Source: Omnitrophica WOR_2 bacterium RIFCSPHIGHO2_02_FULL_50_17 (GTDB lineage: Bacteria; Omnitrophota; Gorgyraeia; Zapsychrales; Zapsychraceae). Taken from it: a stretch of 64,000 bases of DNA. Made by a program: the position numbers and the translations under genes. Below, in pieces: positions 26,819 to 50,516 of the stretch. The number at the start of each line of letters is the position of its first letter. The stretch's first letter is position 1. The stretch lies in NCBI GenBank assembly GCA_001805645.1, contig MHGQ01000032.1:64267-128266 (forward strand), read 5' to 3'. Below the pieces are notes generated by a model. It worked only from the letters and a program-made list of their open reading frames with translations. It ran no database searches and was not told the origin of the DNA.

Positions 26819-27797
26819 ACTTGATATCCCCCGATTGCAATAAAGTCTTCCTGATGCCCTCAACAATATCTATGGATGGTTTCCACCGCAATCTTTGATA
26901 CAATCGCTGATTGGACAAGACCAGAACCGATTTCTTACCCGCTTCATTATCGCATTTGACCGCCTCCGGCGGCCAATCTTTCAGCCGGCAAAAAGTTCGC
27001 GCCAACTCTCCAACGGACGTCCCATTTCCCGTCGACAAATTAAAAATTGCGCATCCTTTTTCTTCGCCATAGAGCAAAGACCTTGCAAAAGTTTCAATGA
27101 CATCTTCGATAAATATAAAATCCCTTACCGGTTGCAAATTATGCAAGAACACAGAATTCTTGAACTTCGCCTGATCGAGCATTGTCCCGAATATTGTATT
27201 TTTCTTCGAATCCAGCCCATAAATATTGCTAATCCGAAAAATATCGCAACTTAAGTCGGCAAACCTTGCGTATCCTTTAATGGCCTCTTCCGCCAATACT
27301 TTTGTCAAGGGATATACCCCTTCTGGATTTAAGGCAAATCCTTCTTCAATCGGCTGGTCATATGAGGTGCCATAAACATAAGCCGTTGAAGGATAAATAA
27401 TTCTTCGAATTTTATTTTTAACACAGGCCTCCAGTAAATTAGTTGTCAAAACAACGTTCTGTTCAACGGCGGCCGTTGGGTCGATTTCGCACTGGTTCGC
27501 GTCGCTCATGCCAGCCAAATGAAACACCGCGGCTTTAGGGCGGGGGATCTGCGACAATTGCCTCAAAGCTCGATCGACCACCTTGAGGTCCATCATGTTA
27601 CCATTGATCAGGCAGTCCTTTTCCAGAACCTCTGACGCGCCAGAAACATCCAGCCCTATGACCATGGCTCCAGCTTCCTGCAACCGCTTGGTCAATCTTC
27701 GCCCTATGACCCCTAACGCCCCCGTGACCAGGACTTTATATTCTTTAAGATCAATGCTCAACGATGTCCTCCGGACTAAGTTGGCTATCACGCGCAA
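26805..27797 (-). CDS. NAD-dependent epimerase/dehydratase (extended SDR)
   Basis: KVLVTGALGVIGRRL Rossmann motif, YPLTK (YxxxK). Confidence 0.75.
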   Translation of the reverse strand: MRVIANLVRRTSLSIDLKEYKVLVTGALGVIGRRLTKRLQEAGAMVIGLDVSGASEVLEKDCLINGNMMDLKVVDRALRQLSQIPRPKAAVFHLAGMSDANQCEIDPTAAVEQNVVLTTNLLEACVKNKIRRIIYPSTAYVYGTSYDQPIEEGFALNPEGVYPLTKVLAEEAIKGYARFADLSCDIFRISNIYGLDSKKNTIFGTMLDQAKFKNSVFLHNLQPVRDFIFIEDVIETFARSLLYGEEKGCAIFNLSTGNGTSVGELARTFCRLKDWPPEAVKCDNEAGKKSVLVLSNQRLYQRLRWKPSIDIVEGIRKTLLQSGDIKYAQT

Positions 27798-28791
27798 TGT
27801 TTTTGCTTGCTCTTTTTCCCAAAAGCTTCTTATAATCCTTGGCCAAAAAATGCCCCGTGCCGGGTCTTTTAACCCAAATATTTTCTTTCGTAAAAACTTC
27901 CCGGGCCTTTATATCTCGGAGAGAAACCACCGATGCGTAAGCAAAATCAATGACCGGCTGCTCTTCCTTCAATATATCCTTTTTACCTCCCGTGGCCATA
28001 AAAACTGCCCGAGAGCCTTTAACAAGTTCTGCTAATTCATCAGGCTCGACCGATAAAGACACATCAGGTCCTGGCCATTGGCGGCTAATCGTAAAATGTT
28101 TTTCCAGCGCGCAAGCCCCGAGGGCAACGGCGCCCAAGCAGGTATAAATATTGATAGAGTGATCGCTTAATCCCACCGGCAAATCAAAAGTCTCGCGCAG
28201 TTCGACAATGGCATTTAACCGGACTTTTTCATAAGGGGTGGGATACATCGAAGTGCAATGCATCAACATGAGAGGACATTTATATCGTTGTATAAGCCCC
28301 ACAGACGCTCTTACAGAACCAATATCGTTCATCCCGGTTGAAAGGATGATAGGTTTTCCCATCGCCGCGATATGTTCCAATAACGGCAAATTATTGCATT
28401 CCCCTGAACCGATCTTGAAGGCGGCGATGTCCAGAGCCTCCAGTCGATCGGCCGCCTCCCGGGAGAAGGGCGTACACAGATATATGATCCCTTTTTGTTC
28501 ACAATATTTTTTTAATCGACGCTCTTCTTCTTCGTTTAACTCGCAACGCTTTATAATATCCCATAATCTTTCCTCGGAAATCTTGCCTGGTTTCATGTCC
28601 GTCGGGATCATTTCCGCTTCGGTAATGTGACACTGGAATTTGACACAGTCGGCTTTGGCCGCAACGGCCGCATCCACCAACTGTCTAGCCTTGTCAAAAT
28701 CCCCCTCATGATTGATCCCAACTTCCGCAATAACAAAGGGCGGATGATTTGGTCCTATCATCCGTCCGTTAACATTGATCTCATTAGCCAT
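27751..28791 (-). CDS. N-acetylneuraminate/legionaminate/pseudaminate synthase family (NeuB-like) with C-terminal SAF domain
   Basis: FVIAEVGINHEGDFDKA…DCVKFQ…LSDHS…motifs of NeuB-family PEP-condensing synthases; 346 aa. Confidence 0.85.
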   Translation of the reverse strand: MANEINVNGRMIGPNHPPFVIAEVGINHEGDFDKARQLVDAAVAAKADCVKFQCHITEAEMIPTDMKPGKISEERLWDIIKRCELNEEEERRLKKYCEQKGIIYLCTPFSREAADRLEALDIAAFKIGSGECNNLPLLEHIAAMGKPIILSTGMNDIGSVRASVGLIQRYKCPLMLMHCTSMYPTPYEKVRLNAIVELRETFDLPVGLSDHSINIYTCLGAVALGACALEKHFTISRQWPGPDVSLSVEPDELAELVKGSRAVFMATGGKKDILKEEQPVIDFAYASVVSLRDIKAREVFTKENIWVKRPGTGHFLAKDYKKLLGKRASKNIARDSQLSPEDIVEH

Positions 28792-36098: not shown

Positions 36099-37185
36099 TC
36101 ATAACTGACGAATTTCTACCCGTCGCTTTTCCTGAGACGATTGGCGTATGGCTTCCATGGCCCTATGCGTCTTAAGACCGTCCCCAAAAGTGGCTCCGCC
36201 GACCGGGCGACCGTCTCTTATCGAATGAAGAAAATCATCTGCCATCCGCGTAAATGAAGCGCGCCATTCACTGCCGGAAACCCATCCCTCCATCAGCAAT
36301 GGATCCTTGATCGACAAATCGTGCACAGTTGTTGTCTTTCGAAACATCGTCAAATTCTGCTCGCCTTCCAGAAAAAGAGACCCTTTTTCACCATAAATCT
36401 GAATAGATGGCCCTTTCCATCCGATGGCCACACTCGAAACAACGCATGATGCAAAAACCCCGTTCTCAAAACCAAGCTGAAAAGAAGCGATCTCATCGGA
36501 AGTTACCTTGCGAAGCTTGTTACTTTTCAAATCACGGCGCTGGTCGGTAACCGTTTTTAACTCGCCGTTAACCCATTTCACTTCACCAAACCACCAACGC
36601 AACAAATCAATCTGATGAGAACCCATCGTGTAGAGTTGCCCGCCACCTTTTTTGATATCGGACCACCAGTTCCACGGGAGCCCCGGATCGATCCGGTTAG
36701 AGGTACTGTAATCCAGCGTCACATGCAAGATCCGCCCCAAATCCCCGTTCTCCAGGATTTTCTTTACGGCAATCTTCTGAAGCTGAAACCGCATCTGGTG
36801 TCCCACAAGATGGATGACACCGGCTTTTTCGACCGCTTTATACATTTGCACGGCATCCTGCACGTTACAACCGAGCGACTTCTCGCATAACAGATGCTTT
36901 TTTTCTCTTGGCGGCCTCAAAAACAATTTTTTTATGGGTTTCCGGTGGAGTTGCAACGGTAACGGCATCCACGTCCAGCCCCAAAAGCCCCCCGTAGTCG
37001 CTTAGGGCATATGGTACATCAAATTTCTTGGCCAGATTGCTGGTTTTTTCTTTATTCCTTCCACAGATCGCCACCACTTCAGAGCAAGGGTTTGCCTTAA
37101 AAGCCGGGAGATGAACCATCCCCCCATACCTTGTTCCTATAATGCCAATTTTTACAATTTCGGCACTCATAAGACTATTGAACAA
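36099..37185 (-). pseudogene. Gfo/Idh/MocA-family oxidoreductase split by a +1 frameshift in an A7 homopolymer (ORFs 36865..37185 and 36099..36968)
   Basis: The N-terminal ORF has the Rossmann IGIIGTRYGG motif and ends …EAAKRKKAS*; the second ORF continues KKHLLCEKSLG…. The intact paralog at 42219..43370 reads …GKHILCEKPM…. A run of seven A (minus strand, + coords ~36898-36904) sits at the junction, and deleting one A restores a single 361-aa frame. Confidence 0.7.
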
Positions 37186-38260
37186 CTCCCTCCAGCGGCA
37201 TTGTCTTTTTATTATGCGAAACTAAAAGGCGGTTAAAATTTTCGACGTGATCCATATAATTCTTAAACTTTTGTCGTTGTATAAAAAATAATAGTGAAAG
37301 ATATAGCCCCGCCAGTTTCCCACGTCTTGCATGTTTATTCAGAATGGAATTATATTGATTTAAACGACCGTTGGCGGCATCCCTAACAAGACGCAATTCT
37401 TTAATTTCTCTCTGAAAGGAGTTTTTGATTAAATAAAAAGATCTCTGGAGTCCGCCGATTCTCTTGTAAGAATAGGAGAATCTCCGTGCGTTTTCCATGA
37501 GGGCCTTATCGTCAAGTAGATCATAAATGGGGGGGCAACTGGGCCATTTCTTTATGGATATATCTGACAAGTAAAAATTCTTTTGCACTTCCAGGCCCAA
37601 CTTTTTCTTGAATCCATCGCGAAGCGCTTCAAACGAGGCAATAATTTCTTCAAACCGCAAGAAAACATAATCGTTTTCGGATAATTCAGGCAGCAGCCTT
37701 TGCAGGTTTAATAAATTACTAAGAACCGTCCCACGCGATTCGTTGAGGGCAATCTGTTTATTAAAACGTTCATGCAATGAGGCGATATTATCCAGGGGAT
37801 CCCGGACTTGACAGATAAACTTCAGGCTGATCTTCTTGCCTTCGTATCGATAATAATCCAGGATCAGGTCATGAAGAACATCCACATATTTCTGTTTCCA
37901 TGGGCCTTCTTGCGTTGTATATTTTCTGGAGAAATCAAAAATCGGTTTGTCTACATTATCGAAATATATTTCTTCAAATATACGGAAAATCCTTTCTTTC
38001 GTAAGCTCTTCCTTCTCCAGGGTTATCCCATGCGCAGAACATAGCTGTGCGAGAATATCCCAATGAGTGACACTTTCCCCGGCGAACTCTTCAAACGCGT
38101 TGGTATCGGGCGCAATCATGGCTGCGGCTGCTTTGGCCCAGAACTGGTCATGGTTGATCGGCTCAATGGTCCCTTTATTGTGCAAGTCCATCATAATGCT
38201 TCTGATGATGTGAGAGCCTGCACCGGAAGTTGTTAAATAAATAATAAATTTCTTAGACAT
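37175..38260 (-). CDS. Sulfotransferase-family protein (PAPS-dependent)
   Basis: N-terminal IIYLTTSGAGSHIIRS (5'-phosphosulfate-binding P-loop-like) and CQVRDPLDNIASL (RDP 3'-phosphate-binding motif); adjacent to APS kinase. Confidence 0.55.
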   Translation of the reverse strand: MSKKFIIYLTTSGAGSHIIRSIMMDLHNKGTIEPINHDQFWAKAAAAMIAPDTNAFEEFAGESVTHWDILAQLCSAHGITLEKEELTKERIFRIFEEIYFDNVDKPIFDFSRKYTTQEGPWKQKYVDVLHDLILDYYRYEGKKISLKFICQVRDPLDNIASLHERFNKQIALNESRGTVLSNLLNLQRLLPELSENDYVFLRFEEIIASFEALRDGFKKKLGLEVQKNFYLSDISIKKWPSCPPIYDLLDDKALMENARRFSYSYKRIGGLQRSFYLIKNSFQREIKELRLVRDAANGRLNQYNSILNKHARRGKLAGLYLSLLFFIQRQKFKNYMDHVENFNRLLVSHNKKTMPLEGVVQ

Positions 38261-38275
38261 ATTTTTATCCGGACA

Positions 38276-39247
38276 TCATGCTGAATAAATTTGCACAGAA
38301 TCATGATGGCGCAAGAGATTCAACGCTATCGCCGCGGCCTTTGTTTGTGACTCCACTGTAGCCCCGGCAATATGGGGAGAAATAACCACTCTCCCTTGTT
38401 TGTGCAATGCGATCAAAGCTGACTTAAACTGGTTTCCCGTCACCTCTGCGGACAAAACATCCAGCGCCACTTTGATGTCATGGCGCTCCTTTAAAACCTC
38501 CACTAAATCCTCCTCACGAAGAACTTCGCCCCTAGAAGTATTTATGAAACTGGCATTGTGTTTCAATCTTCTCAAAAGGGATTTGTCGATCATGCCGGTA
38601 GTTTTCGGAGTCAAGGCACAACAAATACAAACGATGTCCGACTCAGAAAATATCTGCTCCAGAGGCCGCTGAGGATAATCGGGAAAAGTTACATAAGGGT
38701 CGTAATAAGAAACCTTGGCCTCAAACGCGCTGCACCATTTCGCCAGTCGTTGTCCTATACGCCCCATACCCACCAATCCAACCTGCCGCCCATTTAATTC
38801 TTGCCCCCTTAGCATTTCTTCATTTTCGCGCCAGCGTCCCGCGGCGACTTCTTGTATAACCACATCAGGCCTTCGAAGCGTATTCAATAACAGAAGAAAA
38901 GTAAATTCCGCGCTGGCACTTATCGTATTAAGCCCTTGCCGATCATCCAGCAGAGTATAGACAGCGACGCCTTTTGCCCGACAATCTTCTTTATCGATAT
39001 GGTTACTGGCGGTCGATGGAGTTATAATGACTGATAGTGCCGGAAATAATCCAAATTCTTCAAGGCCGATAACAAAACGCTGGCCCGGATTTACAATCCA
39101 AATGGACAAAAATGAGTCCGGCGTCAATGCGGCACGGTCCCAAATCTCACAGAATTTTGTCGGAATTGCTTTCTGAAATTCTTCCTTCATATCCCCCAAA
39201 AAAGAATAGGGTGCGCTAAAAAGGCAATATTTATCCATATCGGCCAT
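38276..39247 (-). CDS. D-isomer-specific 2-hydroxyacid dehydrogenase family, NAD-binding
   Basis: GRQVGLVGMGRIGQRLAKW NAD-binding motif; C-terminal catalytic region …SRGEV…ISPHIAGAT. Confidence 0.8.
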   Translation of the reverse strand: MADMDKYCLFSAPYSFLGDMKEEFQKAIPTKFCEIWDRAALTPDSFLSIWIVNPGQRFVIGLEEFGLFPALSVIITPSTASNHIDKEDCRAKGVAVYTLLDDRQGLNTISASAEFTFLLLLNTLRRPDVVIQEVAAGRWRENEEMLRGQELNGRQVGLVGMGRIGQRLAKWCSAFEAKVSYYDPYVTFPDYPQRPLEQIFSESDIVCICCALTPKTTGMIDKSLLRRLKHNASFINTSRGEVLREEDLVEVLKERHDIKVALDVLSAEVTGNQFKSALIALHKQGRVVISPHIAGATVESQTKAAAIALNLLRHHDSVQIYSA

Positions 39248-39252
39248 AAAGT

Positions 39253-39819
39253 TTATTTGTTACAGAAATTTATGATTTCACGGGACACCAGATAATCGCA
39301 AATCATGCAAACGCATTTAGGCACATCAAGGCTGTCCGTTCTCAAATGAATTTCCGGGTTCCTGGGTTTTTCGTACGATGCCGTTACGCCGGTAAAATCC
39401 ACAATGTCACCTCGACGGGCTTTCGCATATAACCCCCTATAATCTCTTTCTTCACAAACTTCTACAGGACAATCGACAAAGACTTCAACGAACCTGTCTT
39501 TTTCAAAAAAACCACGCACCTTCTGCCTTTCGGCTTCACAGGGTGAAACTACGGCAACAATAACCATTATGTTATTATGCATCAGAAACCTGGCGACTTC
39601 TCCCACTCTTCGAACGTTCTCCGCCCTGTCTGCGGGGGAAAATCCCAAATCGCTGTTTAATCCTTTTCGGAGTTGGTCCCCATCAAGAATGATCGAGTGG
39701 ATCCCGGACTGCAGTAACTCTTTCCCAAAAGCGCTTGCGATTGTCGACTTTCCGGCTGACGGCAAACCGGTCAACCATATAACCGCACTTTTATGCCCAT
39801 TTAATTTCCTTTTATCCAA
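39253..39819 (-). CDS. cysC: Adenylyl-sulfate kinase (APS kinase, PAPS synthesis)
   Basis: IWLTGLPSAGKSTIA P-loop, ILDGDQLRKGL, FVEVFVDCPVEVCEERD; 188 aa; apparent TTG start. Confidence 0.85.
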   Translation of the reverse strand: MDKRKLNGHKSAVIWLTGLPSAGKSTIASAFGKELLQSGIHSIILDGDQLRKGLNSDLGFSPADRAENVRRVGEVARFLMHNNIMVIVAVVSPCEAERQKVRGFFEKDRFVEVFVDCPVEVCEERDYRGLYAKARRGDIVDFTGVTASYEKPRNPEIHLRTDSLDVPKCVCMICDYLVSREIINFCNK

Positions 39820-39885
39820 TTCACCGATCCCTTCTGTCTTACTACATCTTTCTGTATAAGCCTCTTAATTCTCTGCCCAATTGAG

Positions 39886-40123
39886 TTAGCTGAAGAAATT
39901 CTTCAGGTGTTGCACTAAGCACATGATCCCGGATGACCGATGAGGTCTTATTAAGCGTAAAATGTTTTTCAACAAACTGTGCCCCCCGGCTGACGGCCAG
40001 CAAACATGCCGCAATCCCGTGACAATGATCACTGTAGCCCCGGCAATATGGGGAGAAATAACCACTCTCCCTTGTTTGTGCAACGCGATCAAAGCTGACT
40101 TAAGCCGGTTTCCTGTCACTTCA
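39886..40123 (-). pseudogene. Duplicated 3'-end fragment of the 2-hydroxyacid dehydrogenase gene (second copy of a ~98-bp direct repeat)
   Basis: Fragment ORF encodes …[29 protein letters not shown]…, matching the C-terminus of 38276..39247 (…[29 protein letters not shown]…). Nucleotides 40026-40123 are ~95% identical to 38347-38444, and homology stops sharply at both ends. Confidence 0.7.
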
Positions 40124-41183
40124 AAGACTCTATTTTGTTTCTGAAATCAAGTTCCACCAAATCCGCCTTTTGACAGAGCTGTCCCCAGGTCAAATCATCA
40201 ACATAGATGCCTTCCTGCCGAGACTTCTCGGCATGCCGCTGTTCCGGTTCACCGGGAACAAGGATCTCGGAGATCCCTTTTGCTAACCTGGAAGACTTCA
40301 CATGCCGGCACAAGGAGTCCACCTTCTTTCGAAATTGAGTTAACGGTGTGAAAGCCTCGATGCGTAACGCCAAGAACCAGCAGGCATTCCCATGACGGGT
40401 GGCCTGGGCGTTGGAACATTGGGCGCCAGAAAGAGCGCCGCTCAAGGCATCAATGGCCAAGGATAAGGCAAATCCCTTATGCGCCGAAATCCCACCCAAA
40501 GGCAAGATGGCGCCGCGAGGGTCATGATAAAATTGTTTGGGATCCAGAGCTGAATTCCCCTCGGAATCAATGATCCAGCCTTCCGGGAGACTCTCCTTCT
40601 GATGCAATTTCATTTTCAAAGTTCCTTCCGCAACCATGCTGGTAGACATGTCCAAGAGAAACTCACCTTGCCCGTCCCTGGGAAAAGCGATGGAAATCGG
40701 ATTCGTCGGCAAGCGACGGTCGATGCCGCCAAAGGGTGCCACCACGTGGCTGGTCCCATGCAAATTGGCCATGCCCATCCCCACCATACCCTGTGCTACC
40801 GCTAAAGACGTATACGCACCCAAACGGCCGATGTGATTGCAATTCCGCACCGTTACGCAGGCTACGACTTGAGTCAGGGCTTTCTTCATAGCCAGCTCCA
40901 TGGCAAAACGCGCGATGGGCTGACCGAACCCCCAATGACCGTTGACAACTGCAGAAGAAGGAGTTTCCAACTCCACTGCAATGGACGCACCAGGAACTAT
41001 CTCGCCCTTTTGAATCTTCTCAATGTACCAGGGGGCCCGCAGAACCCCGTGCGAATCATGCCCCAGCAGATTCGACATCACCAAGTGGCTGCTGACTTCC
41101 TGCGCCTCCTGTTCAAACGCTCCATAATTTCTGAAAAGCTCAATAAGATTTTTTTCCAACGTATCCGGGGCTATCCGTATCAT
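40116..41183 (-). CDS. Ldh_2-family (malate/L-lactate/sulfolactate dehydrogenase-type) oxidoreductase
   Basis: LLGHDSHGVLRAPWY motif and overall Ldh_2-like composition; 355 aa. Confidence 0.7.
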   Translation of the reverse strand: MIRIAPDTLEKNLIELFRNYGAFEQEAQEVSSHLVMSNLLGHDSHGVLRAPWYIEKIQKGEIVPGASIAVELETPSSAVVNGHWGFGQPIARFAMELAMKKALTQVVACVTVRNCNHIGRLGAYTSLAVAQGMVGMGMANLHGTSHVVAPFGGIDRRLPTNPISIAFPRDGQGEFLLDMSTSMVAEGTLKMKLHQKESLPEGWIIDSEGNSALDPKQFYHDPRGAILPLGGISAHKGFALSLAIDALSGALSGAQCSNAQATRHGNACWFLALRIEAFTPLTQFRKKVDSLCRHVKSSRLAKGISEILVPGEPEQRHAEKSRQEGIYVDDLTWGQLCQKADLVELDFRNKIESLK

Positions 41184-42259
41184 ATGGCACCTTTCGTTCT
41201 GGGCCGCGCAATGACCAACAAACTGTCTGTCTGCCGCCGTTGGGCAAAGATCTTCCGGTAAATACGGTCAGGAAAATTCCAGACATCAATTGTCCCCTTG
41301 GAGGTTTGCACTTGGGGACGTTTCAAAAAAATCCAGCGCAAATGGTTGGACAGTCCATAAATTTGTACCGGGACAATCTGCCCATCCCAGCCGCACCGTT
41401 CCAAAGCCATCTGCAGCGTTTCCGGTGAGAAATAATTCAAATGCGGGAGTTGATAGAAAAAATCTTCATACCTTGAAGAATGATAAATGGTCAAAAGAGG
41501 ATCCCAAAGATTAGGCAAAAGCATTAACAGAATTCCTGAATCGGAAATCAACTCCCTTAACTTCTTTAAATCCGCTAAGGGATCATGTAAATGTTCCAAA
41601 ACAAACCACATACAGATGACATCAAAAGGATCCATCCCCCCTTGTCCAGACCCGCGTCGCCCGATCAGATTCTGGTGTCCCTCTGCAACCCCATGTCCAG
41701 CGCAAGCCCCAGCGCCGTGACGAGACACGGAAAGATTTCCAATAGGCTCCTGCAGAACCTCAATGCCCAGTTTTTGGCGGACATAAGCGGCAAATGTAGA
41801 ATCCAGCTCCAAGGCGGTACATTTCCTGACATGGGGCTGAACCAGGAATAAGAAGCTGCCCGAGCCACAACCTATTTCCAAAAGAGAAATCTTCTTGCTC
41901 AAATAAGGCTTAACAAGGGCAAAACGGTGCCTGGCCTGTCCCATTCTTGACCGGAAGGTATCTTCCGGATCATGTATCTGCAGTCCCAGTCTTTCCCGGG
42001 GGACATTCCGGTAGTCACCCTTCTGATAGAAATCAACGGTTTCCTGCTGGCCCATCCTTGGCCATAGAAAGACAAAACCACAGCCCTGACAGGACATAAC
42101 ATCGCGCAGAACCCCATAACGCAGACGATTACGAATCCGTTTCTGTTTGTCTCCCAGGCAAAGCGGACATACCGCTTTTTCTTCTTGAGAATTGTTCGCC
42201 GAGCTCTTCACATCAACGCTACTGTTCATCGGGAACCCCCAAGGATAAGCGCACTTCAT
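41180..42259 (-). CDS. Class I SAM-dependent methyltransferase with N-terminal Cys4 zinc-ribbon
   Basis: CPLC…CQGC pairs, motif I LLEIGCGSGSF, motif II-like FDVICMWFVLEHLHDP; an unusually Gly/Ala-rich 35-aa linker between them. Confidence 0.65.
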   Translation of the reverse strand: MKCAYPWGFPMNSSVDVKSSANNSQEEKAVCPLCLGDKQKRIRNRLRYGVLRDVMSCQGCGFVFLWPRMGQQETVDFYQKGDYRNVPRERLGLQIHDPEDTFRSRMGQARHRFALVKPYLSKKISLLEIGCGSGSFLFLVQPHVRKCTALELDSTFAAYVRQKLGIEVLQEPIGNLSVSRHGAGACAGHGVAEGHQNLIGRRGSGQGGMDPFDVICMWFVLEHLHDPLADLKKLRELISDSGILLMLLPNLWDPLLTIYHSSRYEDFFYQLPHLNYFSPETLQMALERCGWDGQIVPVQIYGLSNHLRWIFLKRPQVQTSKGTIDVWNFPDRIYRKIFAQRRQTDSLLVIARPRTKGAI

Positions 42260-43370
42260 CAGTCACCGAAGAACCAGGACTGTCGTCCCTCTGCGAAATG
42301 CCGACCCGGCGTTGGGTTTGATGGGAAATCTTCACCGCCTCTAAGACTTCCTGGATTCTGACCCCATCCCAAAACGTGGAGCCATCACGATAGGGGGTAT
42401 GGACAAAACGTTGCGATTGGATGCATTCAACTAAATGTTCGGCCAACCGAACCAAAGAAGTGCGCCATGGATTCAATCCTACAACCGGTTCTTTCCGCAA
42501 AGAATCAGGCTCAGAAAGATCATGCGAACAACCGTCCTTTACCAAAAACAATTTCTCAAACCCTCTTAGAACCAGAGAACCTTCAGAGCCCGTAATCCGC
42601 ATATCCAATGCAGGCTCATCCGGATCAACGCAGGAGGTCACGATCACCGCTGTCAGGCCGGAACAAAATTCCAAGTCCATAGAAACATACTCATCCGACG
42701 TGACTGCCCGCATCTTATGGGTGCTTGGATCCATCCTTTCTCTCGTGAACGTTGCCAAATGTCCCTGGACTGACCGAATCTCACCAAACCACCACCGCAA
42801 TAAATCAACAAAATGAGAACCTAATGCCAGCAGCTGTCCTCCACCAGCCTTCTCATCAGACCACCAGTCCCAAGGCAAGGATGGATCACAACGCACCGCG
42901 GTAAAATAAGCCAATTGCACATACCTCAGGTTTCCCACGATGCTGTTGCCCAACAGTTTCTTGATCTTTTGACAATTGGGATGAAAACGCATCTGGTGAT
43001 TGATCACCGCCATCGTGCCGGAACCCTGCGATAATTGAAATATCTGACGGGCTTCCTCCACATTCAAGGCCATGGGTTTTTCACACAGGATATGTTTCCC
43101 GGCCTGCAACGCTTGCCCAACCATCCGGCTGTGCAGAAAGGGAGGCACCTCGATACAGACCAAATCGATCTCCGGACAATTCAGCATCTGCTCCAGAGAG
43201 GAGAAAAGATATTTGACCTTGTACTGTTCAGCAATTTTCTTCATTTTCTCTGGAGTTCTGCTCGCCAATGCCAAGACATTCATCCCCTCAGCCACAGAAA
43301 AACAAGGAAGAGTCACCCTGCTCCCAAATCCGCTACCGATGATACCCACTTGTACAGGATGAGGTCTCAT
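42219..43370 (-). CDS. Gfo/Idh/MocA-family oxidoreductase
   Basis: VQVGIIGSGFGSR Rossmann motif, ILCEKPMAL; start MRPHP at 43370 forms ATGA overlap with upstream stop. Confidence 0.8.
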   Translation of the reverse strand: MRPHPVQVGIIGSGFGSRVTLPCFSVAEGMNVLALASRTPEKMKKIAEQYKVKYLFSSLEQMLNCPEIDLVCIEVPPFLHSRMVGQALQAGKHILCEKPMALNVEEARQIFQLSQGSGTMAVINHQMRFHPNCQKIKKLLGNSIVGNLRYVQLAYFTAVRCDPSLPWDWWSDEKAGGGQLLALGSHFVDLLRWWFGEIRSVQGHLATFTRERMDPSTHKMRAVTSDEYVSMDLEFCSGLTAVIVTSCVDPDEPALDMRITGSEGSLVLRGFEKLFLVKDGCSHDLSEPDSLRKEPVVGLNPWRTSLVRLAEHLVECIQSQRFVHTPYRDGSTFWDGVRIQEVLEAVKISHQTQRRVGISQRDDSPGSSVTDEVRLSLGVPDEQ

Positions 43371-44206
43371 CGCAATCGCCCCGTCTTTTCCAGAATCAGA
43401 AAATTCCTCGATATCTGCCTGTTGAGCACTTTTCCAGCCTCCTCCCATGTCATCACAGGACTAATGGTGTTCCGCGGGTATTTCTTCAATAAGATCTCAG
43501 CCACAGCCATATCAATCTCCGCATCAATATTAATTGACCTTTCCGCCGGCATAATATAAGGCCGACTGTCGGAGGTGCCGTAACGGGAGCCTCTCTTCAA
43601 GAGATCACGCTTCATAGCATAAATGGCCCCATTTCGGATGTAGGCGTCCGGCTTCAAGGCCTGACGGTGCGTCTCAGGAATTTCGGGCAAACAGAAATCG
43701 ACGATCTGATCATCCATAATTTTTTTGATGCGGATGGGATGATGATCTTCCAGCTTCGTCACGCCAATGACCGAATCCACCGCCGTCGTCATCAATTTTT
43801 CCAAGGCCGCGTCAATGTCTGCCGACGTTTTCATGGGGTTCGTGCAAAGCAACTCGACCACGTAATCATAAGGAACGCCTTCTTCCTCTTCCGCCCAAGC
43901 CAAGGCGTGCTGATCAGCGGCCAAGGCCGTGGCTGAATCCGTGGCCAGTTCGGCAGGCCGGACAAACGGTGCCTGCGCTCCATACTGAATGGCGGTCCTG
44001 CGGATTTCCTCGCTATCCGAAGAAACAATCAACCGGCTAATCCACCGACTCCTTAAAGCCTCGCAGATCGTATAAGCGATCAAAGGCTTCCCCAAGAGAG
44101 GACGAATATTTTTTTTAATCACGGATTTTGATCCTCCCCGCGCCAGGATGATCCCTAGGACACGCGGATTAGAGGAAGACCCAAACTTTTCTTGTTCGGC
44201 CAACAT
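43367..44206 (-). CDS. Acylneuraminate cytidylyltransferase (CMP-nonulosonic acid synthetase)
   Basis: LGIILARGGSKSVIKKN motif; ~65% identical by eye to the N-terminal domain of 48732..50516. Confidence 0.8.
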   Translation of the reverse strand: MLAEQEKFGSSSNPRVLGIILARGGSKSVIKKNIRPLLGKPLIAYTICEALRSRWISRLIVSSDSEEIRRTAIQYGAQAPFVRPAELATDSATALAADQHALAWAEEEEGVPYDYVVELLCTNPMKTSADIDAALEKLMTTAVDSVIGVTKLEDHHPIRIKKIMDDQIVDFCLPEIPETHRQALKPDAYIRNGAIYAMKRDLLKRGSRYGTSDSRPYIMPAERSINIDAEIDMAVAEILLKKYPRNTISPVMTWEEAGKVLNRQISRNFLILEKTGRLR

Positions 44207-44207
44207 C

Positions 44208-45254
44208 TCACCCCTCCAGCATATCAAGCGTCAATAAGGTATCCTCAGGGATATCCCATTTAGCCCTTTTGCCCAACACATCATTGATGCTGGAAACCGG
44301 CAGTCCGGTCCCGGGGTTTTTAAAATCCAGCATAGATTCCTCAATCCGGGAACCCCCTTTTATGATTCGGGCGGAAACGATCGAAACATGATATTTATTG
44401 CGGGTTACTTGTTCTCTTTCACTGACCCATTTCTCGCCGCTCCCCAGGATTTGCTCGACTTGGCGGATCTGGAGGGCCATCCCCTTCAATTCCGCCGGTT
44501 CCAGTGACAACTTGTGGTCGAATCCCACCATCGTTTTATCCAAAGTGACATGACGCTCCACTACCTTGGCCCCGCGCGCCACGGCCAGCAAAGTTGGCCA
44601 AGCGCCGATCTCATGGCCGGAATACCCCACCGTGACACCATATCGTTCTCGAAGTGTATCTATAATTTTTAAATTGGATTCTTCCGGGGCCTGAGGATAA
44701 GAAGACACGCAGTGCAATAAAACTAAAGGCGCTCCCCAGCTCTTTAATATGTCCACGGCCCGATCCAATTCTTTCAACACACACATGCCGGTGGAAAGAA
44801 TCACCGGCTTCGCGATCTTAGCCAGTTTCTTCAAAAGAGGCAGATTGGTCACACTGTGACTTGCCGTCTTGTAGCCGCAGACATCCAAGGTTTCCAGAAA
44901 ATCAACGGAAGGGATATCGAATGCCGTGCATAGGAAAATCATGCCCCGGGATCGGGCATGGTTAATAATCTGACGGTACTGCCGAGCATCAAACTCCAGA
45001 TGATTGCGGATGTCCCGATATGTCCTGCCGAATTCCGGGAAGCGTGGATCCGGCGCATCCAGAACGTCCTTGATGGCCAGCCCAGCAACATTCCTCTTTT
45101 GGAATTTCACGCAATCCACCCCCGCCTCCTGACAGGCGTCAATCAGGCGCTGGGCCAATTCCACACTCCCGTTGTGATTCAAGCCGATTTCACCAATGAT
45201 AAAGCACGGATGAGATTCTCCAATCCGTCTTTTTTCCAATAGAATATCCTGCAT
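44208..45254 (-). CDS. NeuB-family nonulosonic acid synthase (second copy) with SAF domain
   Basis: CFIIGEIGLNHNGSVELA…DCVKFQKR…GYSGHE motifs. Confidence 0.85.
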   Translation of the reverse strand: MQDILLEKRRIGESHPCFIIGEIGLNHNGSVELAQRLIDACQEAGVDCVKFQKRNVAGLAIKDVLDAPDPRFPEFGRTYRDIRNHLEFDARQYRQIINHARSRGMIFLCTAFDIPSVDFLETLDVCGYKTASHSVTNLPLLKKLAKIAKPVILSTGMCVLKELDRAVDILKSWGAPLVLLHCVSSYPQAPEESNLKIIDTLRERYGVTVGYSGHEIGAWPTLLAVARGAKVVERHVTLDKTMVGFDHKLSLEPAELKGMALQIRQVEQILGSGEKWVSEREQVTRNKYHVSIVSARIIKGGSRIEESMLDFKNPGTGLPVSSINDVLGKRAKWDIPEDTLLTLDMLEG

Positions 45255-45283
45255 AATATATTCTCCTGTCCATAAAAACGTTT

Positions 45284-46684
45284 TTATGGCAAAAACTGTT
45301 TCTTTTCACTCAGACTCAACTCTTTTTCCAGAAAAAATCGGGCGATTTCCTGGAAATAAGGATCGCTGACCTTGATCGTGTATTGTTGATTGGCGATATT
45401 CAAAAGCTCGACCTGATCACCCAGCAACATACCCTTGCGGATAAAACGGCTCGAGGTGATGCATCCTAATCCAATCAATCCCTCATAAACCGGATTCTTT
45501 TCGCTGCGCGGTTTCAGATTCTCACCGATCATTTGATAGCCGCGCTCTCCACAAAACCAAAAAAGCCGAAAATTTTTAAAGGCCGCGATTGTGCTATCCG
45601 ACCCCGTATACACATACTGCTCAATCAGAGCATTGAAGAACCCGTCAGGCCGGAAGGGGAACAAATAATTCACAAACAACACGGCATCCGTAATCGGATT
45701 CTGTTTTTCATATTCAGTCAGGGCAAAATTCAACGTGTTCTCCACACTCTTGCCCCGTGCCAGGAATTTTTCTTCCCGCTTTATGGCCTTAACGCCCTCT
45801 TTTTGAGCAAAGAGAAGAACACTATCGCGTTCACTGATCACGATAACATCCTTAATGTAGGAACACTGGCGCAACTGCTGGATCGTCCGTAACAACAGAT
45901 TCGTTCTGTCTACACACTTGATCTCTCCAATAAGGGGCACAAAAGCTATAATATTCAACTGTCCGGGTTTGAAACTGGCCGGGAGATCACCGCTGAAGTC
46001 CATATGGAGATTCTCCATAATCCTGACCGTCTGTTCGTACCGCTCTTTTTTATTGCTATGGTGGATCCCATGGTAATGGAACACCTCTGCTTCGGGCTCG
46101 TAAACAATCTGATACCCCTCATTGATGACTGTCTGGGCCCAAACACGATCTTCAATGTTCGTTACTTCTTCATCAAAAGGAAGTCTTTCCCACAATGCCC
46201 GTGGAATCATACTGTTGGCATTATGAAAGAATGTGTCCTTGTGCTGAATCCTTTTATCCAACCCAAAAGTGATCAGGAGGTCTCTCTTGTCGATACCCGA
46301 AGAATAGCGCAGGGGGATCTGCCGGCCATAAACCCCCGCAATGTTCCCTTCGTTGGCGGAAAAATTCCGTAACAAATTTTCCAGCCATTTTTCATGTTTA
46401 GGGATACAGTGCGCCGACAGACAGACCGCATATTCACCGTGGGACACCCGGATACCGTTGTTCAAAGCCTGCCCGGGATAATATTTCTCGATTTCCACTA
46501 TTTTAACTGGAAATGTCCTGGCCAGAGCCAGGGTATTATCCGTGCTTTTATTATCAACGACCACCACTTCGACATCCTGAACCGTCTGAGAAAAAACCAT
46601 GCGCAGGCAATGTACAATCCATTGCTCCTCGTTCCTCGTCCGGATGATCACGGACACCCTTGGAAATTTCTTGGGATAGTTCAT
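45284..46684 (-). CDS. GT2 glycosyltransferase fused to a C-terminal cytidylyltransferase-like (NTP-transferase) domain
   Basis: N-terminal RVSVIIRTRNEE…VVVVDNKSTDNT (GT2); C-terminal LNIIAFVPLIGEIKCVD… resembles the nucleotidyltransferase fold. Confidence 0.6.
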   Translation of the reverse strand: MNYPKKFPRVSVIIRTRNEEQWIVHCLRMVFSQTVQDVEVVVVDNKSTDNTLALARTFPVKIVEIEKYYPGQALNNGIRVSHGEYAVCLSAHCIPKHEKWLENLLRNFSANEGNIAGVYGRQIPLRYSSGIDKRDLLITFGLDKRIQHKDTFFHNANSMIPRALWERLPFDEEVTNIEDRVWAQTVINEGYQIVYEPEAEVFHYHGIHHSNKKERYEQTVRIMENLHMDFSGDLPASFKPGQLNIIAFVPLIGEIKCVDRTNLLLRTIQQLRQCSYIKDVIVISERDSVLLFAQKEGVKAIKREEKFLARGKSVENTLNFALTEYEKQNPITDAVLFVNYLFPFRPDGFFNALIEQYVYTGSDSTIAAFKNFRLFWFCGERGYQMIGENLKPRSEKNPVYEGLIGLGCITSSRFIRKGMLLGDQVELLNIANQQYTIKVSDPYFQEIARFFLEKELSLSEKKQFLP

Positions 46685-47682
46685 TTAACGACCCCTCCTT
46701 CAGCCCGGCACGGCAAGGCCCCGGACAACAAACATTCCGCTAACTGCATGCTCACCAGCGCCTCCCTCAAAGTAGCACCGGGAAAACCGATCTTCTTCTT
46801 GTCCAAGCAGGCATCTATAAACATCCTATTCTGAGCGAAAAGACCTGGCTTAAAATCCCGATCCTCCTGACTGATCGGCAGAGCTTGCTGGGTCCCATCA
46901 GAAAAAGTGACCCGGCCTTCTTCCATAGGTTCAATGTCAAGGCGCCATCCGTCCCCAAACAGTCTGACGGCCCAATTCCCAGGAGAATTCCAATTCGACA
47001 GATAATGACCAATCGCCCCCTGTTCAAATCGAATAAGGGCGTGCAGGCAATCCGGATGCAGCGGTTCCTTCCAAGTCTGCTGCATAACATGAAATTCCTT
47101 GATATGCCCTCCCAAAAAGGAGAGCATATCCAAACAATGAATGCCGTTGTTGAAGATCCATCGGCGCAAAACTTCCTGGGGGAACTTTTTCTTGGCCTTG
47201 ATTTCCTCAAACCGTTCAGGAGCCTCGACCACCAAAGACATCAACGGGGACCGCTGACGGATCATCCGGATACCCTCCATAACCGTACTGGAAAAACGTC
47301 TCTGCAGTCCCACCATATGGATCACGCCCTTGAATTCGGCGATCTGAAGAAGTTCTTCGGTTTCTTCCACGGATAAACCCGGCGGTTTTTCAATCAATGA
47401 GGGGATGCCTCTGACCAAACATGATCTCGCCACAGTAAAATTGTCCATGACACTCACACAGATAAAAACCGCATCCAAGGCCTCCTGATCCAGCATTTCT
47501 AAAAAGCTGGAATAGTTCCGCGGAATATTATACTTTCGGCAGACGGCATTCCTTCTTTCTTCGCTCCATTGATTGGCTAAGGCCACCACCTCCACATCAT
47601 TCATCTTGAGCAGGACATCAAGATGAAAACAGGCCATCCGCCCTGCCCCGATGATCCCCACACGGCATTTTGTCTTCATCAA
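46681..47682 (-). CDS. Gfo/Idh/MocA-family oxidoreductase
   Basis: CRVGIIGAGRMACFH Rossmann motif, 333 aa. Confidence 0.8.
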   Translation of the reverse strand: MMKTKCRVGIIGAGRMACFHLDVLLKMNDVEVVALANQWSEERRNAVCRKYNIPRNYSSFLEMLDQEALDAVFICVSVMDNFTVARSCLVRGIPSLIEKPPGLSVEETEELLQIAEFKGVIHMVGLQRRFSSTVMEGIRMIRQRSPLMSLVVEAPERFEEIKAKKKFPQEVLRRWIFNNGIHCLDMLSFLGGHIKEFHVMQQTWKEPLHPDCLHALIRFEQGAIGHYLSNWNSPGNWAVRLFGDGWRLDIEPMEEGRVTFSDGTQQALPISQEDRDFKPGLFAQNRMFIDACLDKKKIGFPGATLREALVSMQLAECLLSGALPCRAEGGVVK

Positions 47683-47710
47683 TTGCTTCTCCTTAAAGTG
47701 TTGCTGTTAC

Positions 47711-48745
47711 CTAAGTAAACTGGTATTCTGTCTGAAAAATTTCTTGATGCAACGGCAATTCAACCGGCTGATTACCATGGCCTTCCGATTGATGGATGGC
47801 AATGGAAACCATAAGACTCCGTAACCCGTCAACGCCACTACAGCTGACGGGTCCTGTGGAAAACAACTCCTCTATCGCCCTACGGCTGCAGTCAATCATA
47901 TCAATATCGCTTCCGGTAAAAGCAATAGGGATTAAAGGCGGCCGGCGCGTGAAAGGCTGGTCGCGGTCCTTGGGGTTGCGGGCAAAAATTTCCCACTTGC
48001 TGTATTTCTCATCAATAAGGACTCGACCAATAGACCCCATGATCTCAATAAAAGAGGGGACCCCGTAATCTTCGCACATATCAAAAAATATCCGGACGCC
48101 TCCTTCCAGCCAGACAAGGCCGTAGGCGCCCGGATCGCGGTACTGCGGGCCCCGGGGATTGGGAGTTCCTGTTCTATCGAGGTAACCCAAGACTCTCACC
48201 GGCTCTTTATCCGTCAGAAACCGCACCAAATCCCAGAAATGCCCGCCATTTGAGGCCAGTTGTCCTCCCGCCATCTCAAAGGTGATATGACGGATTTCCC
48301 CAATAACCCCATCTTCAAGCTGGGCCTTGAGCCGCGCATAGGCAGGAACCCACCGGCGCAGATGATTGATCGCCAAGCGAACACCTTTTCCCCTGCAAGT
48401 TTCTGTCATCCTTTGGGCATCTAATAGCGAGGTTGCCATCGGCTTCTCGCATAAAATTCTTGGGACACCGCACTCGGCCGCGGCCATCGTAATCATGGCA
48501 TGCGATGGGCCGTTGGATGCGATAATCAAAAGATCTAATTTTTCACTCTGGAGCAAATCTTTCCACTGAACATAACTTCGGCGCGGCGCGTACTGCTGGT
48601 TAACCTGATTAATCACCTCAGGCCTCAAATCACACACGGCCGTCAATTCCACATTTTTCAACGTTTTTAGGGCCTCACAGTGACGACGGCCCATGCCTCC
48701 CAATCCTATGACACCGACTTTTTTAAACTCTTCAAACATGCCCAT
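47711..48745 (-). CDS. Gfo/Idh/MocA-family oxidoreductase
   Basis: KKVGVIGLGGMGRRHCEAL Rossmann motif, ILCEKPMATS. Confidence 0.8.
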   Translation of the reverse strand: MGMFEEFKKVGVIGLGGMGRRHCEALKTLKNVELTAVCDLRPEVINQVNQQYAPRRSYVQWKDLLQSEKLDLLIIASNGPSHAMITMAAAECGVPRILCEKPMATSLLDAQRMTETCRGKGVRLAINHLRRWVPAYARLKAQLEDGVIGEIRHITFEMAGGQLASNGGHFWDLVRFLTDKEPVRVLGYLDRTGTPNPRGPQYRDPGAYGLVWLEGGVRIFFDMCEDYGVPSFIEIMGSIGRVLIDEKYSKWEIFARNPKDRDQPFTRRPPLIPIAFTGSDIDMIDCSRRAIEELFSTGPVSCSGVDGLRSLMVSIAIHQSEGHGNQPVELPLHQEIFQTEYQFT

Positions 48746-50516
48746 TCCTTCGCTCTTGTTCTTTATAAGCCTCCTGAGGAACAGTCATTCTCAACGGCTT
48801 GCCGGTAAGAAAATTCAACACTTCTTGGACAGCGCCCATTTCCATCGCCCTTTTACAGTCAACAGATGCGGCGGCCATGTGTGAGGTCAACAAACAATTA
48901 TCCAGTTGCGCCAGCGGCCCATCGTAGGGTTCTTTCTCAAAAACATCCAGGGCGGCGCCGGCGATTTTGCATGATTGCAGCGCTTCAAAAAGATCTTCTT
49001 CACAAATAATGCCTCCTCGCGAAGTATTAACAAGCAAAGCCTCCGGCTTCATCATGCCCAATTCCTTACAGGTTATAAAATATCTTGTTGCTTGCGTAAG
49101 TGGAAGATGCAGGGAAATAATATCGGATTCTCTCAATAACTTTTCCTTATCAACCCACTGAAAATTACGCTCATCTGCCGATATATCACTTTGCCTAAGA
49201 TCGAAGCCCAAAACCCTGGTGCCGAATCCTTGAAGATATTTAACAACTAACTTCCCTATGGAACCGACTCCCATCAATCCCACGGTACAATCTGCCAATC
49301 GTCGGCCAACCTGTCTTTTCCATACGCCCTTATGAAGATCCTGATTGGCTTGAGGGATATGCCGTAACAAAGCGAGCATGCATCCAACAACAAATTCCGC
49401 TACAGCCGGCGCGGGCGCGTGAGGCGTATAAGTCACTTGAATCCCCTTTTCTTTGGCCGCCAATAAATCAATATTGTCCAGCCCAATCCCTGCGCGAGCA
49501 ATCAACCGTAAATAAGGGGCTGCATCTATGACCTTCCTGGTGACAGGGCTTGTCCCTGCCAGCAAAATACCAAAATCTTTAATAAGCTCGATGGTTTCAT
49601 TTTCTGTAGGACGCCTGCCCAGCGGATTTATCGTATAATCCACTTTATTTTTCTTTAGTAATTCAATCGGGGAGTCATCGTAATCACCGAAGGGGACGGT
49701 GGTAATAAGGACCCTTTTCCCCTGTGATCTGGTGGGGATATAACCGGGCGCCTCTGTTTTTCCCAAATCAGCTTCTTGGCTGGCTAACCGTATATAATCC
49801 CGAGGGAACTTCTTCAACAAAATCTCCGCCATATAAAAATCGTTTATAGCGTCGATATTAACCGTTCGTTCCTCGGGCATGATATAGGGGCGGCTATTTT
49901 CTGAACCGATCCTCGTATGAATGCAATCCCTCCTACAGGCATATATGGACCCATTACGAATGTAGGCATCGGGCTTAAGCGCCTGCCGATGAGAACCTGG
50001 AATTTCTTTCAAGCAAAAATCGACAATCCGGTCATCAACAATTTTCTTGATGCGAACGGGATGGTGGTCCTGTAGTTTGGCCACTCCAATAACTGAATCT
50101 GCCCCAGTCTGGACCAATTTCTCAATGCACTGGTCAATGTCTTCGCTTGTCTTCATAGGATTGGTGCACAACATCTCAACGATGTAATCATAGCGTTTCC
50201 CCTCATTTTTTTCGGCCCATTCAACGGCATGCTCCAGGGCGTCGTTAGATGACGCCGTGTCCGTCGCCAGATGAGCCGGCCTCAGAAACGGAGCCTCGGC
50301 CCCGTATTGAATCGCTACCTTTTGGATTTCCAAGTCATCAGTAGAAACAATCAGTCGACTTAATTTTTTGCTTCGCAAGGCCTCACAAATCGTGTAAGCG
50401 ATCAAAGGATGCCCGTCAAGCAAACGGATGTTCTTTCCGGGAATCGCCTTTGATCCGCCACGGGCCAAAATTATCCCGATAATCCGTGGACTGAATTGTT
50501 CTTTGTTTGTTTTCAC
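48732..50516 (-). CDS. Fusion protein: acylneuraminate cytidylyltransferase (N) + D-3-phosphoglycerate/2-hydroxyacid dehydrogenase-like domain (C)
   Basis: N-terminus RIIGIILARGGSKAIPGKN (paralog of 43367..44206); C-terminal half GLMGVGSIGKLVVKYLQGFG…NTSRGGII…SHMAAAS typical of SerA/D-2-HADH. Confidence 0.75.
   Translation of the reverse strand: MKTNKEQFSPRIIGIILARGGSKAIPGKNIRLLDGHPLIAYTICEALRSKKLSRLIVSTDDLEIQKVAIQYGAEAPFLRPAHLATDTASSNDALEHAVEWAEKNEGKRYDYIVEMLCTNPMKTSEDIDQCIEKLVQTGADSVIGVAKLQDHHPVRIKKIVDDRIVDFCLKEIPGSHRQALKPDAYIRNGSIYACRRDCIHTRIGSENSRPYIMPEERTVNIDAINDFYMAEILLKKFPRDYIRLASQEADLGKTEAPGYIPTRSQGKRVLITTVPFGDYDDSPIELLKKNKVDYTINPLGRRPTENETIELIKDFGILLAGTSPVTRKVIDAAPYLRLIARAGIGLDNIDLLAAKEKGIQVTYTPHAPAPAVAEFVVGCMLALLRHIPQANQDLHKGVWKRQVGRRLADCTVGLMGVGSIGKLVVKYLQGFGTRVLGFDLRQSDISADERNFQWVDKEKLLRESDIISLHLPLTQATRYFITCKELGMMKPEALLVNTSRGGIICEEDLFEALQSCKIAGAALDVFEKEPYDGPLAQLDNCLLTSHMAAASVDCKRAMEMGAVQEVLNFLTGKPLRMTVPQEAYKEQERRNGHV

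Follow-up and report, generated by a model that had tools for sequence, protein, structure and literature searches.

Capsule and O-antigen loci are mosaic polysaccharide clusters that carry gene remnants at the boundaries of their modules. At the level of mechanism, homology-facilitated illegitimate recombination (HFIR) in transformable bacteria combines one homologous anchor with joints at 3-10 bp microhomologies (de Vries & Wackernagel 2002; Prudhomme et al. 2002; Meier & Wackernagel 2003; summarised in PMC6382021), and in SPDIR (short-patch double illegitimate recombination) ectopic single strands anneal at microhomologies (bioRxiv 10.1101/2023.11.22.568220). Here we analyse a 93-nt direct repeat in a stretch of 64,000 nucleotides, called the window throughout, from an uncultured groundwater Omnitrophica WOR_2 bacterium (contig MHGQ01000032.1, assembly GCA_001805645.1). 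One copy lies inside an intact gene for a D-isomer 2-hydroxyacid dehydrogenase (2HADH), and the other is an orphan fragment in the 296-bp gap between an Ldh_2-family gene and cysC. A preliminary description of this DNA had seen here the scar of a recombination or replacement inside an operon, and that a module was replaced by recombination is now established. More specifically, we read the repeat as the junction relic of a module swap in a glycan cluster, with a probability of roughly 0.8.

The setting resembles capsule and O-antigen loci in several respects. The window is a giant co-oriented glycan cluster, of a hypervariable surface-glycan type predicted to make nonulosonic acids, in a metagenome-assembled genome of Omnitrophica WOR_2 (the 2HADH protein is OGX38706.1). 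All open reading frames (ORFs) of at least 150 aa in positions 1-64000 lie on the minus strand, except for ORFs that overlap them on the opposite strand and are probably spurious. Many of them belong to glycan biosynthesis, among them three NeuB-type genes (a remnant included), several GFO oxidoreductases, a carbamoyltransferase, methyltransferases, PFTS_polysacc and LIC12162. As in capsule loci, a whole module appears to have been exchanged, truncated genes lie at the seams, and leftover genes seem to decay (here a frameshift in a GFO gene and a nonsense variant of 2HADH, both described below). Unlike in those loci, the host is an Omnitrophica WOR_2 bacterium, and the remnant is a chimera of two resident genes. 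The features on which the argument turns, in window coordinates, are these.

Imported segment (module A), 40123..48200, minus strand: 3' half of GFO1, then GFO2, GT2, NeuB+SAF, CTP_transf_3, GFO3, methyltransferase and Ldh_2; the left limit is approximate.
Ldh_2-family dehydrogenase gene, 40116..41183, minus strand: last gene of the imported block; Pfam domain complete.
Junction J1, 40116..40122, minus strand: end of Ldh_2 joined to codon 268 of 2HADH.
Repeat copy 2, 40030..40122, minus strand: orphan 31-codon fragment of 2HADH with five private transitions, all within the 39 nt at the Ldh_2 side.
Junction J2, 40030..40039, minus strand: GGCTACAGTG, common to the fragment of 2HADH (..A G A T V) and the remnant of NeuB' (G Y S D..).
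NeuB' 3' remnant, 39842..40039, minus strand: codons 163-227 and stop of a SAF-less NeuB-family gene; 89% amino acid identity to the intact 227-aa gene of the closest relative (contig L013).
cysC (APS kinase), 39253..39819, minus strand: resident, collinear with L013, with the same 22-nt spacer after the NeuB' stop.
Intact 2HADH gene, 38276..39247, minus strand: source of the repeat; 323 codons; Pfam 2-Hacid_dh_C, E=3e-43.
Repeat copy 1, 38354..38446, minus strand: codons E268-V298 inside the intact 2HADH gene.

The two copies (38354-38446 and 40030-40122) align without gaps and on the same strand at 88 of 93 positions (94.6%), with their starts 1676 bp apart. In a self-blastn of the window, a check that the preliminary description had itself proposed, the repeat emerges with E=6e-35 as the sole near-identical repeat in 64 kb, which makes it a same-orientation segmental duplication of resident DNA. 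The repeat had been reported as ~98 bp long and ~95% identical, at 38347-38444 and 40026-40123; it is real, but those coordinates are a few bases off and the length slightly too great. That homology stops abruptly at both ends is borne out when the flanks are compared. The duplicated piece is not, however, the last ~30 codons of the dehydrogenase gene, as had been supposed, since 25 further codons follow codons 268-298 in copy 1. On translation, the 2HADH frame of copy 2 is indeed lost after ...HIAGATV, and the view that the second copy is a non-functional remnant holds: it keeps 31 of 323 codons, and its frame is broken.

Copy 2 derives from this lineage's own 2HADH gene and not from a foreign homolog, because both copies share 19 differences from the L013 ortholog. 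The five positions at which they differ from each other are all private to copy 2, with copy 1 retaining the outgroup state at each. By the synonymous divergence between the window and L013 (dS 0.74-1.1), copy 2 would have arisen well after the two lineages split. Two other sources were considered. Import of copy 2 together with the foreign block was rejected in view of the 19 lineage-specific states that it has in common with copy 1, and the 2HADH domain of a CTP_transf_3-2HADH fusion gene (48732-50516) was rejected as a source because self-blastn found no nucleotide similarity. The private changes of copy 2 are all transitions, three of them synonymous and two not, and all fall in 40084-40122, the 39 nt closest to J1, which leaves the 54 nt on the J2 side free of copy-2-specific changes. 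Under uniformity such clustering has a probability of (39/93)^5 = 0.013, in a test that is post hoc, and mutagenic synthesis, an older pseudogene or chance are possibilities for its cause.

The 296-bp spacer between Ldh_2 and cysC is a chimera of this 2HADH fragment and a NeuB'-type 3' remnant. Translated in the other frames, it has copy 2 joined directly to a 65-codon 3' end of a NeuB-family gene in a different frame, matching positions 175-232 of the 241 of Pfam PF03102 (E=2.5e-15). Both parts are truncated pseudogene remnants that have no start of their own and a broken frame, with 31 of 323 codons left of 2HADH and 65 of 227 left of NeuB'. The preliminary description had recognised a remnant in the spacer and had missed both its NeuB' portion and a 10-nt microhomology at the seam. 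A search with the 69-aa NeuB' remnant as a protein query returned three short ORFs only, on poor or short contigs, in which SAF-less NeuB' proteins terminate naturally at the end point of the remnant. The NeuB+SAF genes of the window (44208-45254 and 27751-28791) were considered as its source and rejected, as full-length NeuB' is only ~30% identical to them in amino acids. SAF-less NeuB-family proteins of 227-233 aa are encoded on the relatives' contigs L013 (8720-9403), L017 (9303-10004) and L018 (4761-5447), always in a triad of GT2 (with CTP_transf_3-like matches), NeuB' and 2HADH; L017 and L018 show a 4-nt overlap between the NeuB' gene and that of 2HADH. These proteins score 115 bits versus 400, far under the NeuB and PseI equivalog cut-offs.

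At J1 the Ldh_2 gene borrows its stop codon from copy 2. The TGA at 40116-40118 belongs to the 2HADH sequence GAAGTGAC (GTGAC) and is read one base out of frame; that this stop lies inside the repeat had been noticed correctly before. The C-terminus and stop of Ldh_2 are thus secondary. The protein has 355 aa and its homologs 337-364 aa; their C-terminal tails are not conserved, and no close donor is known. At J2, copy 2 reads ...GCCGGGGCTACAGTG|ATCATTGTCACGGG, the same site in copy 1 reads ...GCCGGGGCTACAGTG|GAGTCACAAAC, and NeuB' of L013 reads ...TATTATGGCTATAGTGATCATTGTCACGGG. NeuB' and 2HADH both contain, in one orientation and at a distance of 1676 bp, the ~10-nt stretch GGCTA(C/T)AGTG; its equivalents are GGCTATAGTG in NeuB' of L013 and GGCTACAGCG in NeuB' of L017. 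The crossover at J2 lies within this stretch, which makes J2 a classic microhomology joint, inside the 3-10 bp range at which the illegitimate joints of HFIR form.

The state that preceded these junctions can be read from relatives. The closest 2HADH relative (P0005, 85% identical) is encoded on four Logan contigs (L013-L016), on which the order is PFTS, a CTP_transf_3/2HADH fusion, GFO1, GFO2, GT2' (476 aa), NeuB' (227 aa, SAF-less), cysC, 2HADH, a gene for a 361-aa protein (p361), an intact GFO gene and an acyltransferase gene. In these contigs there is no repeat, and NeuB'-cysC-2HADH-p361 is collinear with the window. More distant contigs, L017 (66%) and L018-L020 (62%), have GT2'-NeuB'-2HADH without cysC and the 361-aa gene. 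When genome contigs were scanned with the 2HADH protein, one match of only 28% identity was found. The ancestral order was then ...GFO1-GFO2-GT2'-NeuB'(SAF-less)-cysC-2HADH-p361-GFO4..., in which a full-length NeuB' is ancestral and cysC-2HADH resident because the closest relative is intact and collinear. Amino acid identities to L013 are 86% for cysC, 85% for 2HADH, 83% for p361 and 58% for GFO2. Whether cysC is absent in related genomes had been raised as a check, and the outcome is divided: it is absent from the distant L017 and L018 but present and collinear in the closest contigs, L013-L016. Because L017 and L018 are without it, cysC was once an addition, but one that was inserted between NeuB' and 2HADH before the window and L013 lineages split, and that is unrelated to the repeat.

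Aligned at the nucleotide level, the window and L013 match from 53000 down to ~46839 and then again from exactly 40039, the edge of the NeuB' remnant, downstream at 82% identity. The GT2, NeuB+SAF, CTP_transf_3, GFO3, methyltransferase and Ldh_2 genes of the window have no positional counterpart in L013. Their order (GT2-NeuB+SAF-CTP_transf_3-GFO-methyltransferase-Ldh_2) is kept in the unrelated contigs L021 and L024, whose Ldh_2 proteins are 70% and 68% identical to that of the window and where Ldh_2 is followed by an acyltransferase or MBOAT gene, with no 2HADH present. The block has a GC content of 49.6% versus 43.5-46.4% in its flanks; GC at third codon positions (GC3) is 59% in Ldh_2 versus 46% in cysC, and the step in GC and GC3 recurs at both ends of the block. 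By absence from L013, conservation elsewhere and composition, then, the intervening DNA is foreign. On this comparison the upstream ~8-kb block is the newcomer, which overwrote GT2' and codons 1-162 of NeuB' (its 5' 70%), and the cluster of the window reads as a hybrid of two alternative modules, each of which is found separately in other organisms. The earlier suggestion that a gene cassette had been inserted or replaced was therefore right as to replacement, but the incoming cassette is the upstream ~8 kb and not the 1.6-kb unit with cysC.

The left side of the block is of another kind. In a sliding comparison, identity between the window and L013 is 80-89% down to ~48200, in mid-GFO1, and 51-69% over the rest of GFO1 and GFO2, and it falls to background within GT2. 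Within GFO1 itself (47711-48745, against 5231-6259 of L013), identity drops from ~86% to ~61% in mid-gene. This switch places the left edge of the exchanged segment inside the gene and makes GFO1 a mosaic.

Taken together, these observations suggest the following history. A foreign, GC-richer block (GFO2-GT2-NeuB+SAF-CMP-sugar transferase-GFO-methyltransferase-Ldh_2) would have entered the lineage of the window. On its left side, it would have recombined in homologous, if diverged, sequence at about the middle of GFO1. On its right side, it would have been joined illegitimately, with GT2' and the first 162 codons of NeuB' deleted. The right joint would have taken up 93 nt of the resident 2HADH gene, which is found intact 1.7 kb downstream; this piece would have met the NeuB' remnant in the 10-nt microhomology, and its other end would have given Ldh_2 its stop. 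The genes cysC and 2HADH would still be transcribed from upstream. As to mechanism, we infer HFIR or microhomology-mediated joining.

The order of steps within such a swap could have taken several forms. In a single event (history S), the illegitimate end would have copied 93 nt of 2HADH and then switched template at GGCTACAGTG. Alternatively (history T), a microhomology-mediated tandem duplication of 1676 bp, of which J2 is the novel joint, would have come first, and the whole segment from GFO1 through codon 267 of the first 2HADH would then have been replaced. Finally (history H), a first replacement ending in 2HADH could have occurred in a sibling strain, which would then have recombined illegitimately a second time, at J2, with a sibling that was intact. 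Some leverage comes from the apparent ages of the two parts of the spacer. Polarised with L017 as outgroup, the NeuB' remnant has 10 window-specific nucleotide changes versus 16 specific to L013, and its dN/dS against L013 is 0.079, as compared with 0.087 for cysC and 0.113 for 2HADH. Neutral decay for the same time as copy 2 would predict ~10 extra changes in the remnant (range 3-24), so the lack of any excess is mildly inconsistent with equal-age neutral decay (p ~0.01-0.07 by estimate). That copy 2 and the NeuB' remnant seem to differ in age weakly favours S or H over T. The fullest form of history S, one complex HFIR event in which the illegitimate end primed on 2HADH, made an error-prone 93-nt copy, with five transitions in its first 39 nt, and switched at the 10-nt microhomology to NeuB', we put forward only tentatively, as a rather doubtful possibility.

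Several points weigh against the module swap as we reconstruct it. Intermediate genomes were not found: the closest relatives are 85% identical for 2HADH and 70% for Ldh_2, and for this reason the direction and order of events rest on parsimony. The left breakpoint is a gradient of identity and has no sharp edge or mapped crossover. Of the two illegitimate joints, J2 is the one at which a microhomology can be shown. Moreover, copy 2 has five changes in 93 nt next to a NeuB' remnant with no excess, a pattern that equal-age neutral decay fails to explain.

Other readings of the same DNA have to be set against the module swap. The preliminary description took the repeats to bracket an inserted or duplicated 1.6-kb cassette of cysC and most of the dehydrogenase gene. 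It is true that cysC and the 5' 80% of 2HADH are enclosed by copies spaced 1676 bp apart, that cysC is missing between NeuB' and 2HADH in L017 and L018, and that a 1676-bp tandem duplication is a possible intermediate. Yet the collinear NeuB'-cysC-2HADH-p361 of the closest relative, without a repeat, makes cysC older than the scar; the bracketed unit holds the NeuB' remnant as well; and the segment that lacks a counterpart in the relative is the compositionally distinct upstream block. No relative was found in which Ldh_2 directly precedes a full 2HADH gene without cysC, those of Ldh_2 preceding acyltransferase or MBOAT genes. Nor does the DNA between the copies or close to them contain an integrase, a transposase or any attC-like structure. 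At 93 nt the repeat is far from the 2-15 bp of a transposon or insertion sequence target-site duplication; only the NeuB' remnant, cysC and 2HADH lie between the copies, with no transposase flanked by terminal inverted repeats; and a scan for inverted repeats yielded no pair at the ends of the repeat and only four elsewhere, all weak and at chance level (21-24 nt, 71-79% complementary). An integron-type cassette fares no better, with no integrase among the ORFs of 28.8-52.5 kb, no attC-like fold and no Rfam match. All told, a 1.6-kb cassette is improbable.

A functional spacer, as a 77-aa ORF (39886-40119), a regulatory RNA, or a promoter or terminator for cysC, seems still harder to credit. 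In its favour, the GTG start of the 77-aa ORF overlaps the Ldh_2 stop (GTGA) as in translational coupling, the frame of the NeuB' remnant is open with the low dN/dS given above, and the native 22-nt spacer before cysC is kept. However, the ORF consists of 31 2HADH residues and out-of-frame NeuB' sequence, matches no family and is absent from the gene calls of every assembly; the spacer has no Rfam match, folds no better than its shuffles (z=-0.62) and yields no promoter or terminator on the minus strand when scanned; and a low dN/dS is the expectation for a recent pseudogene over a long branch (dS 0.74). The spacer is a relic without a function of its own. That a chimeric strain join or a mis-resolved repeat in the metagenome assembly made copy 2 is the least credible explanation of all, although the window comes from a metagenome-assembled genome, the 5% difference between the copies is one that strain variants could show, and contigs of a k=31 assembly break at the repeat. 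That break is what a true repeat should produce: the Logan contig of SRR2090155 ends at 40054, after 30 nt (k-1) of the 54 nt over which the copies do not differ, and this is the expected branch point of the assembly graph. Contigs from other samples, found by exact-protein look-up, carry the structure with single-nucleotide differences of their own. The ERZ27254836 contig has one mismatch in 13.8 kb and carries copy 2, both junctions and copy 1, and the ERZ4903072 contig has three mismatches in 7.2 kb and carries copy 2 and both junctions. A contig of ERZ4903137 is 100% identical over 21 kb and also includes them, though it and the window possibly share their source data; of the two copies, contig L007 (JGI 3300002529) holds only copy 1. 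Because near-identical sequence recurs in independent assemblies, the repeat is not a one-off misassembly. Copy 2 is also flanked on both sides by unique, interpretable sequence (the Ldh_2 end and the NeuB' remnant), and microhomology at a junction is a biological signature. A scan of metagenome contigs for a copy-2-specific 20-mer, which sought arrangements with J1 only or otherwise different, returned just one unrelated chance match (L025).

The module swap can now be compared with the processes named at the outset. As in HFIR, foreign DNA appears to have one end in homologous sequence, where identity to the relative decays in GFO1, and has the other at a short, GC-containing microhomology (the ~10 nt of J2), with resident genes deleted. 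Our case differs in being reconstructed from a natural genome and not observed, and in that a filler of 93 nt, copied from a resident gene at a distance of 1.7 kb, lies on its illegitimate side, which so has two illegitimate joints. SPDIR and other templated insertions likewise place an ectopic stretch of the same genome between a pair of illegitimate joints, one or both of which use a microhomology, but here the patch of 93 nt borders a replacement of 8 kb. Rearrangement between short direct repeats, by microhomology-mediated tandem duplication or by deletion, is a further parallel, and the novel joint of such a duplication would be exactly that seen at J2; unlike in a simple tandem duplication, just 93 nt of the first unit are left, J1 calls for a second event, and the NeuB' remnant and copy 2 do not look equal in age. 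The scar is thus a product of ordinary genome evolution, unusually well preserved, and represents no new kind of element or mechanism. For annotation, it means that the 296 bp between Ldh_2 and cysC are a chimeric pseudogene and not an unexplained intergenic element. Those who study horizontal transfer gain a natural junction that is cleanly resolved: its microhomology measures 10 nt, its filler is templated or duplicated, and its ancestral state is known. If the single-event reading is true, the locus would be a natural footprint, left during horizontal gene transfer in an uncultured phylum, of microhomology-mediated template switching akin to MMBIR (microhomology-mediated break-induced replication) or SPDIR. 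Its value lies mainly in annotation hygiene and as a worked example, with a modest upside should a one-step templated-filler event be shown.

Downstream of the repeat, what is left of the old module includes one further feature.

GFO/IDH/MocA gene of the old module (GFO4), 36099..37185, minus strand: split by a +1 frameshift near 36897.

The frameshift consists of one extra base by an A-run (GAGAAAAAAAGCATC versus GAGGAAAAAACATC in L014), leaves ORFs of 106 aa and 289 aa, and is present in every contig of the population that spans the site; in L014 the GFO gene is intact, with 356 aa. In a co-occurring strain variant (L026, ERZ4903072 k141_2972733, 99.8% identical), codon 191 of 2HADH is changed from TAT to TAG, at ~38675 of the window. 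Together, the frameshift in GFO4 and the nonsense variant of 2HADH hint that the leftover old module may be decaying or being lost. The 361-aa protein encoded next to 2HADH (37175-38260) had no match in sequence searches of Pfam, NCBIfam and PDB. Its gene occurs with cysC in the window and in L013/L014, and both are absent from L017 and L018. Because its presence tracks that of cysC, which encodes an APS kinase, we regard it as a candidate sulfotransferase dependent on 3'-phosphoadenosine 5'-phosphosulfate (PAPS), of an undescribed family. Upstream, the CTP_transf_3 gene of the imported block (43617-44155) and the corresponding domain of the resident fusion gene (49939-50477) are 68% identical in nucleotides over 545 nt, and these two are paralogous cytidylyltransferases within one cluster.

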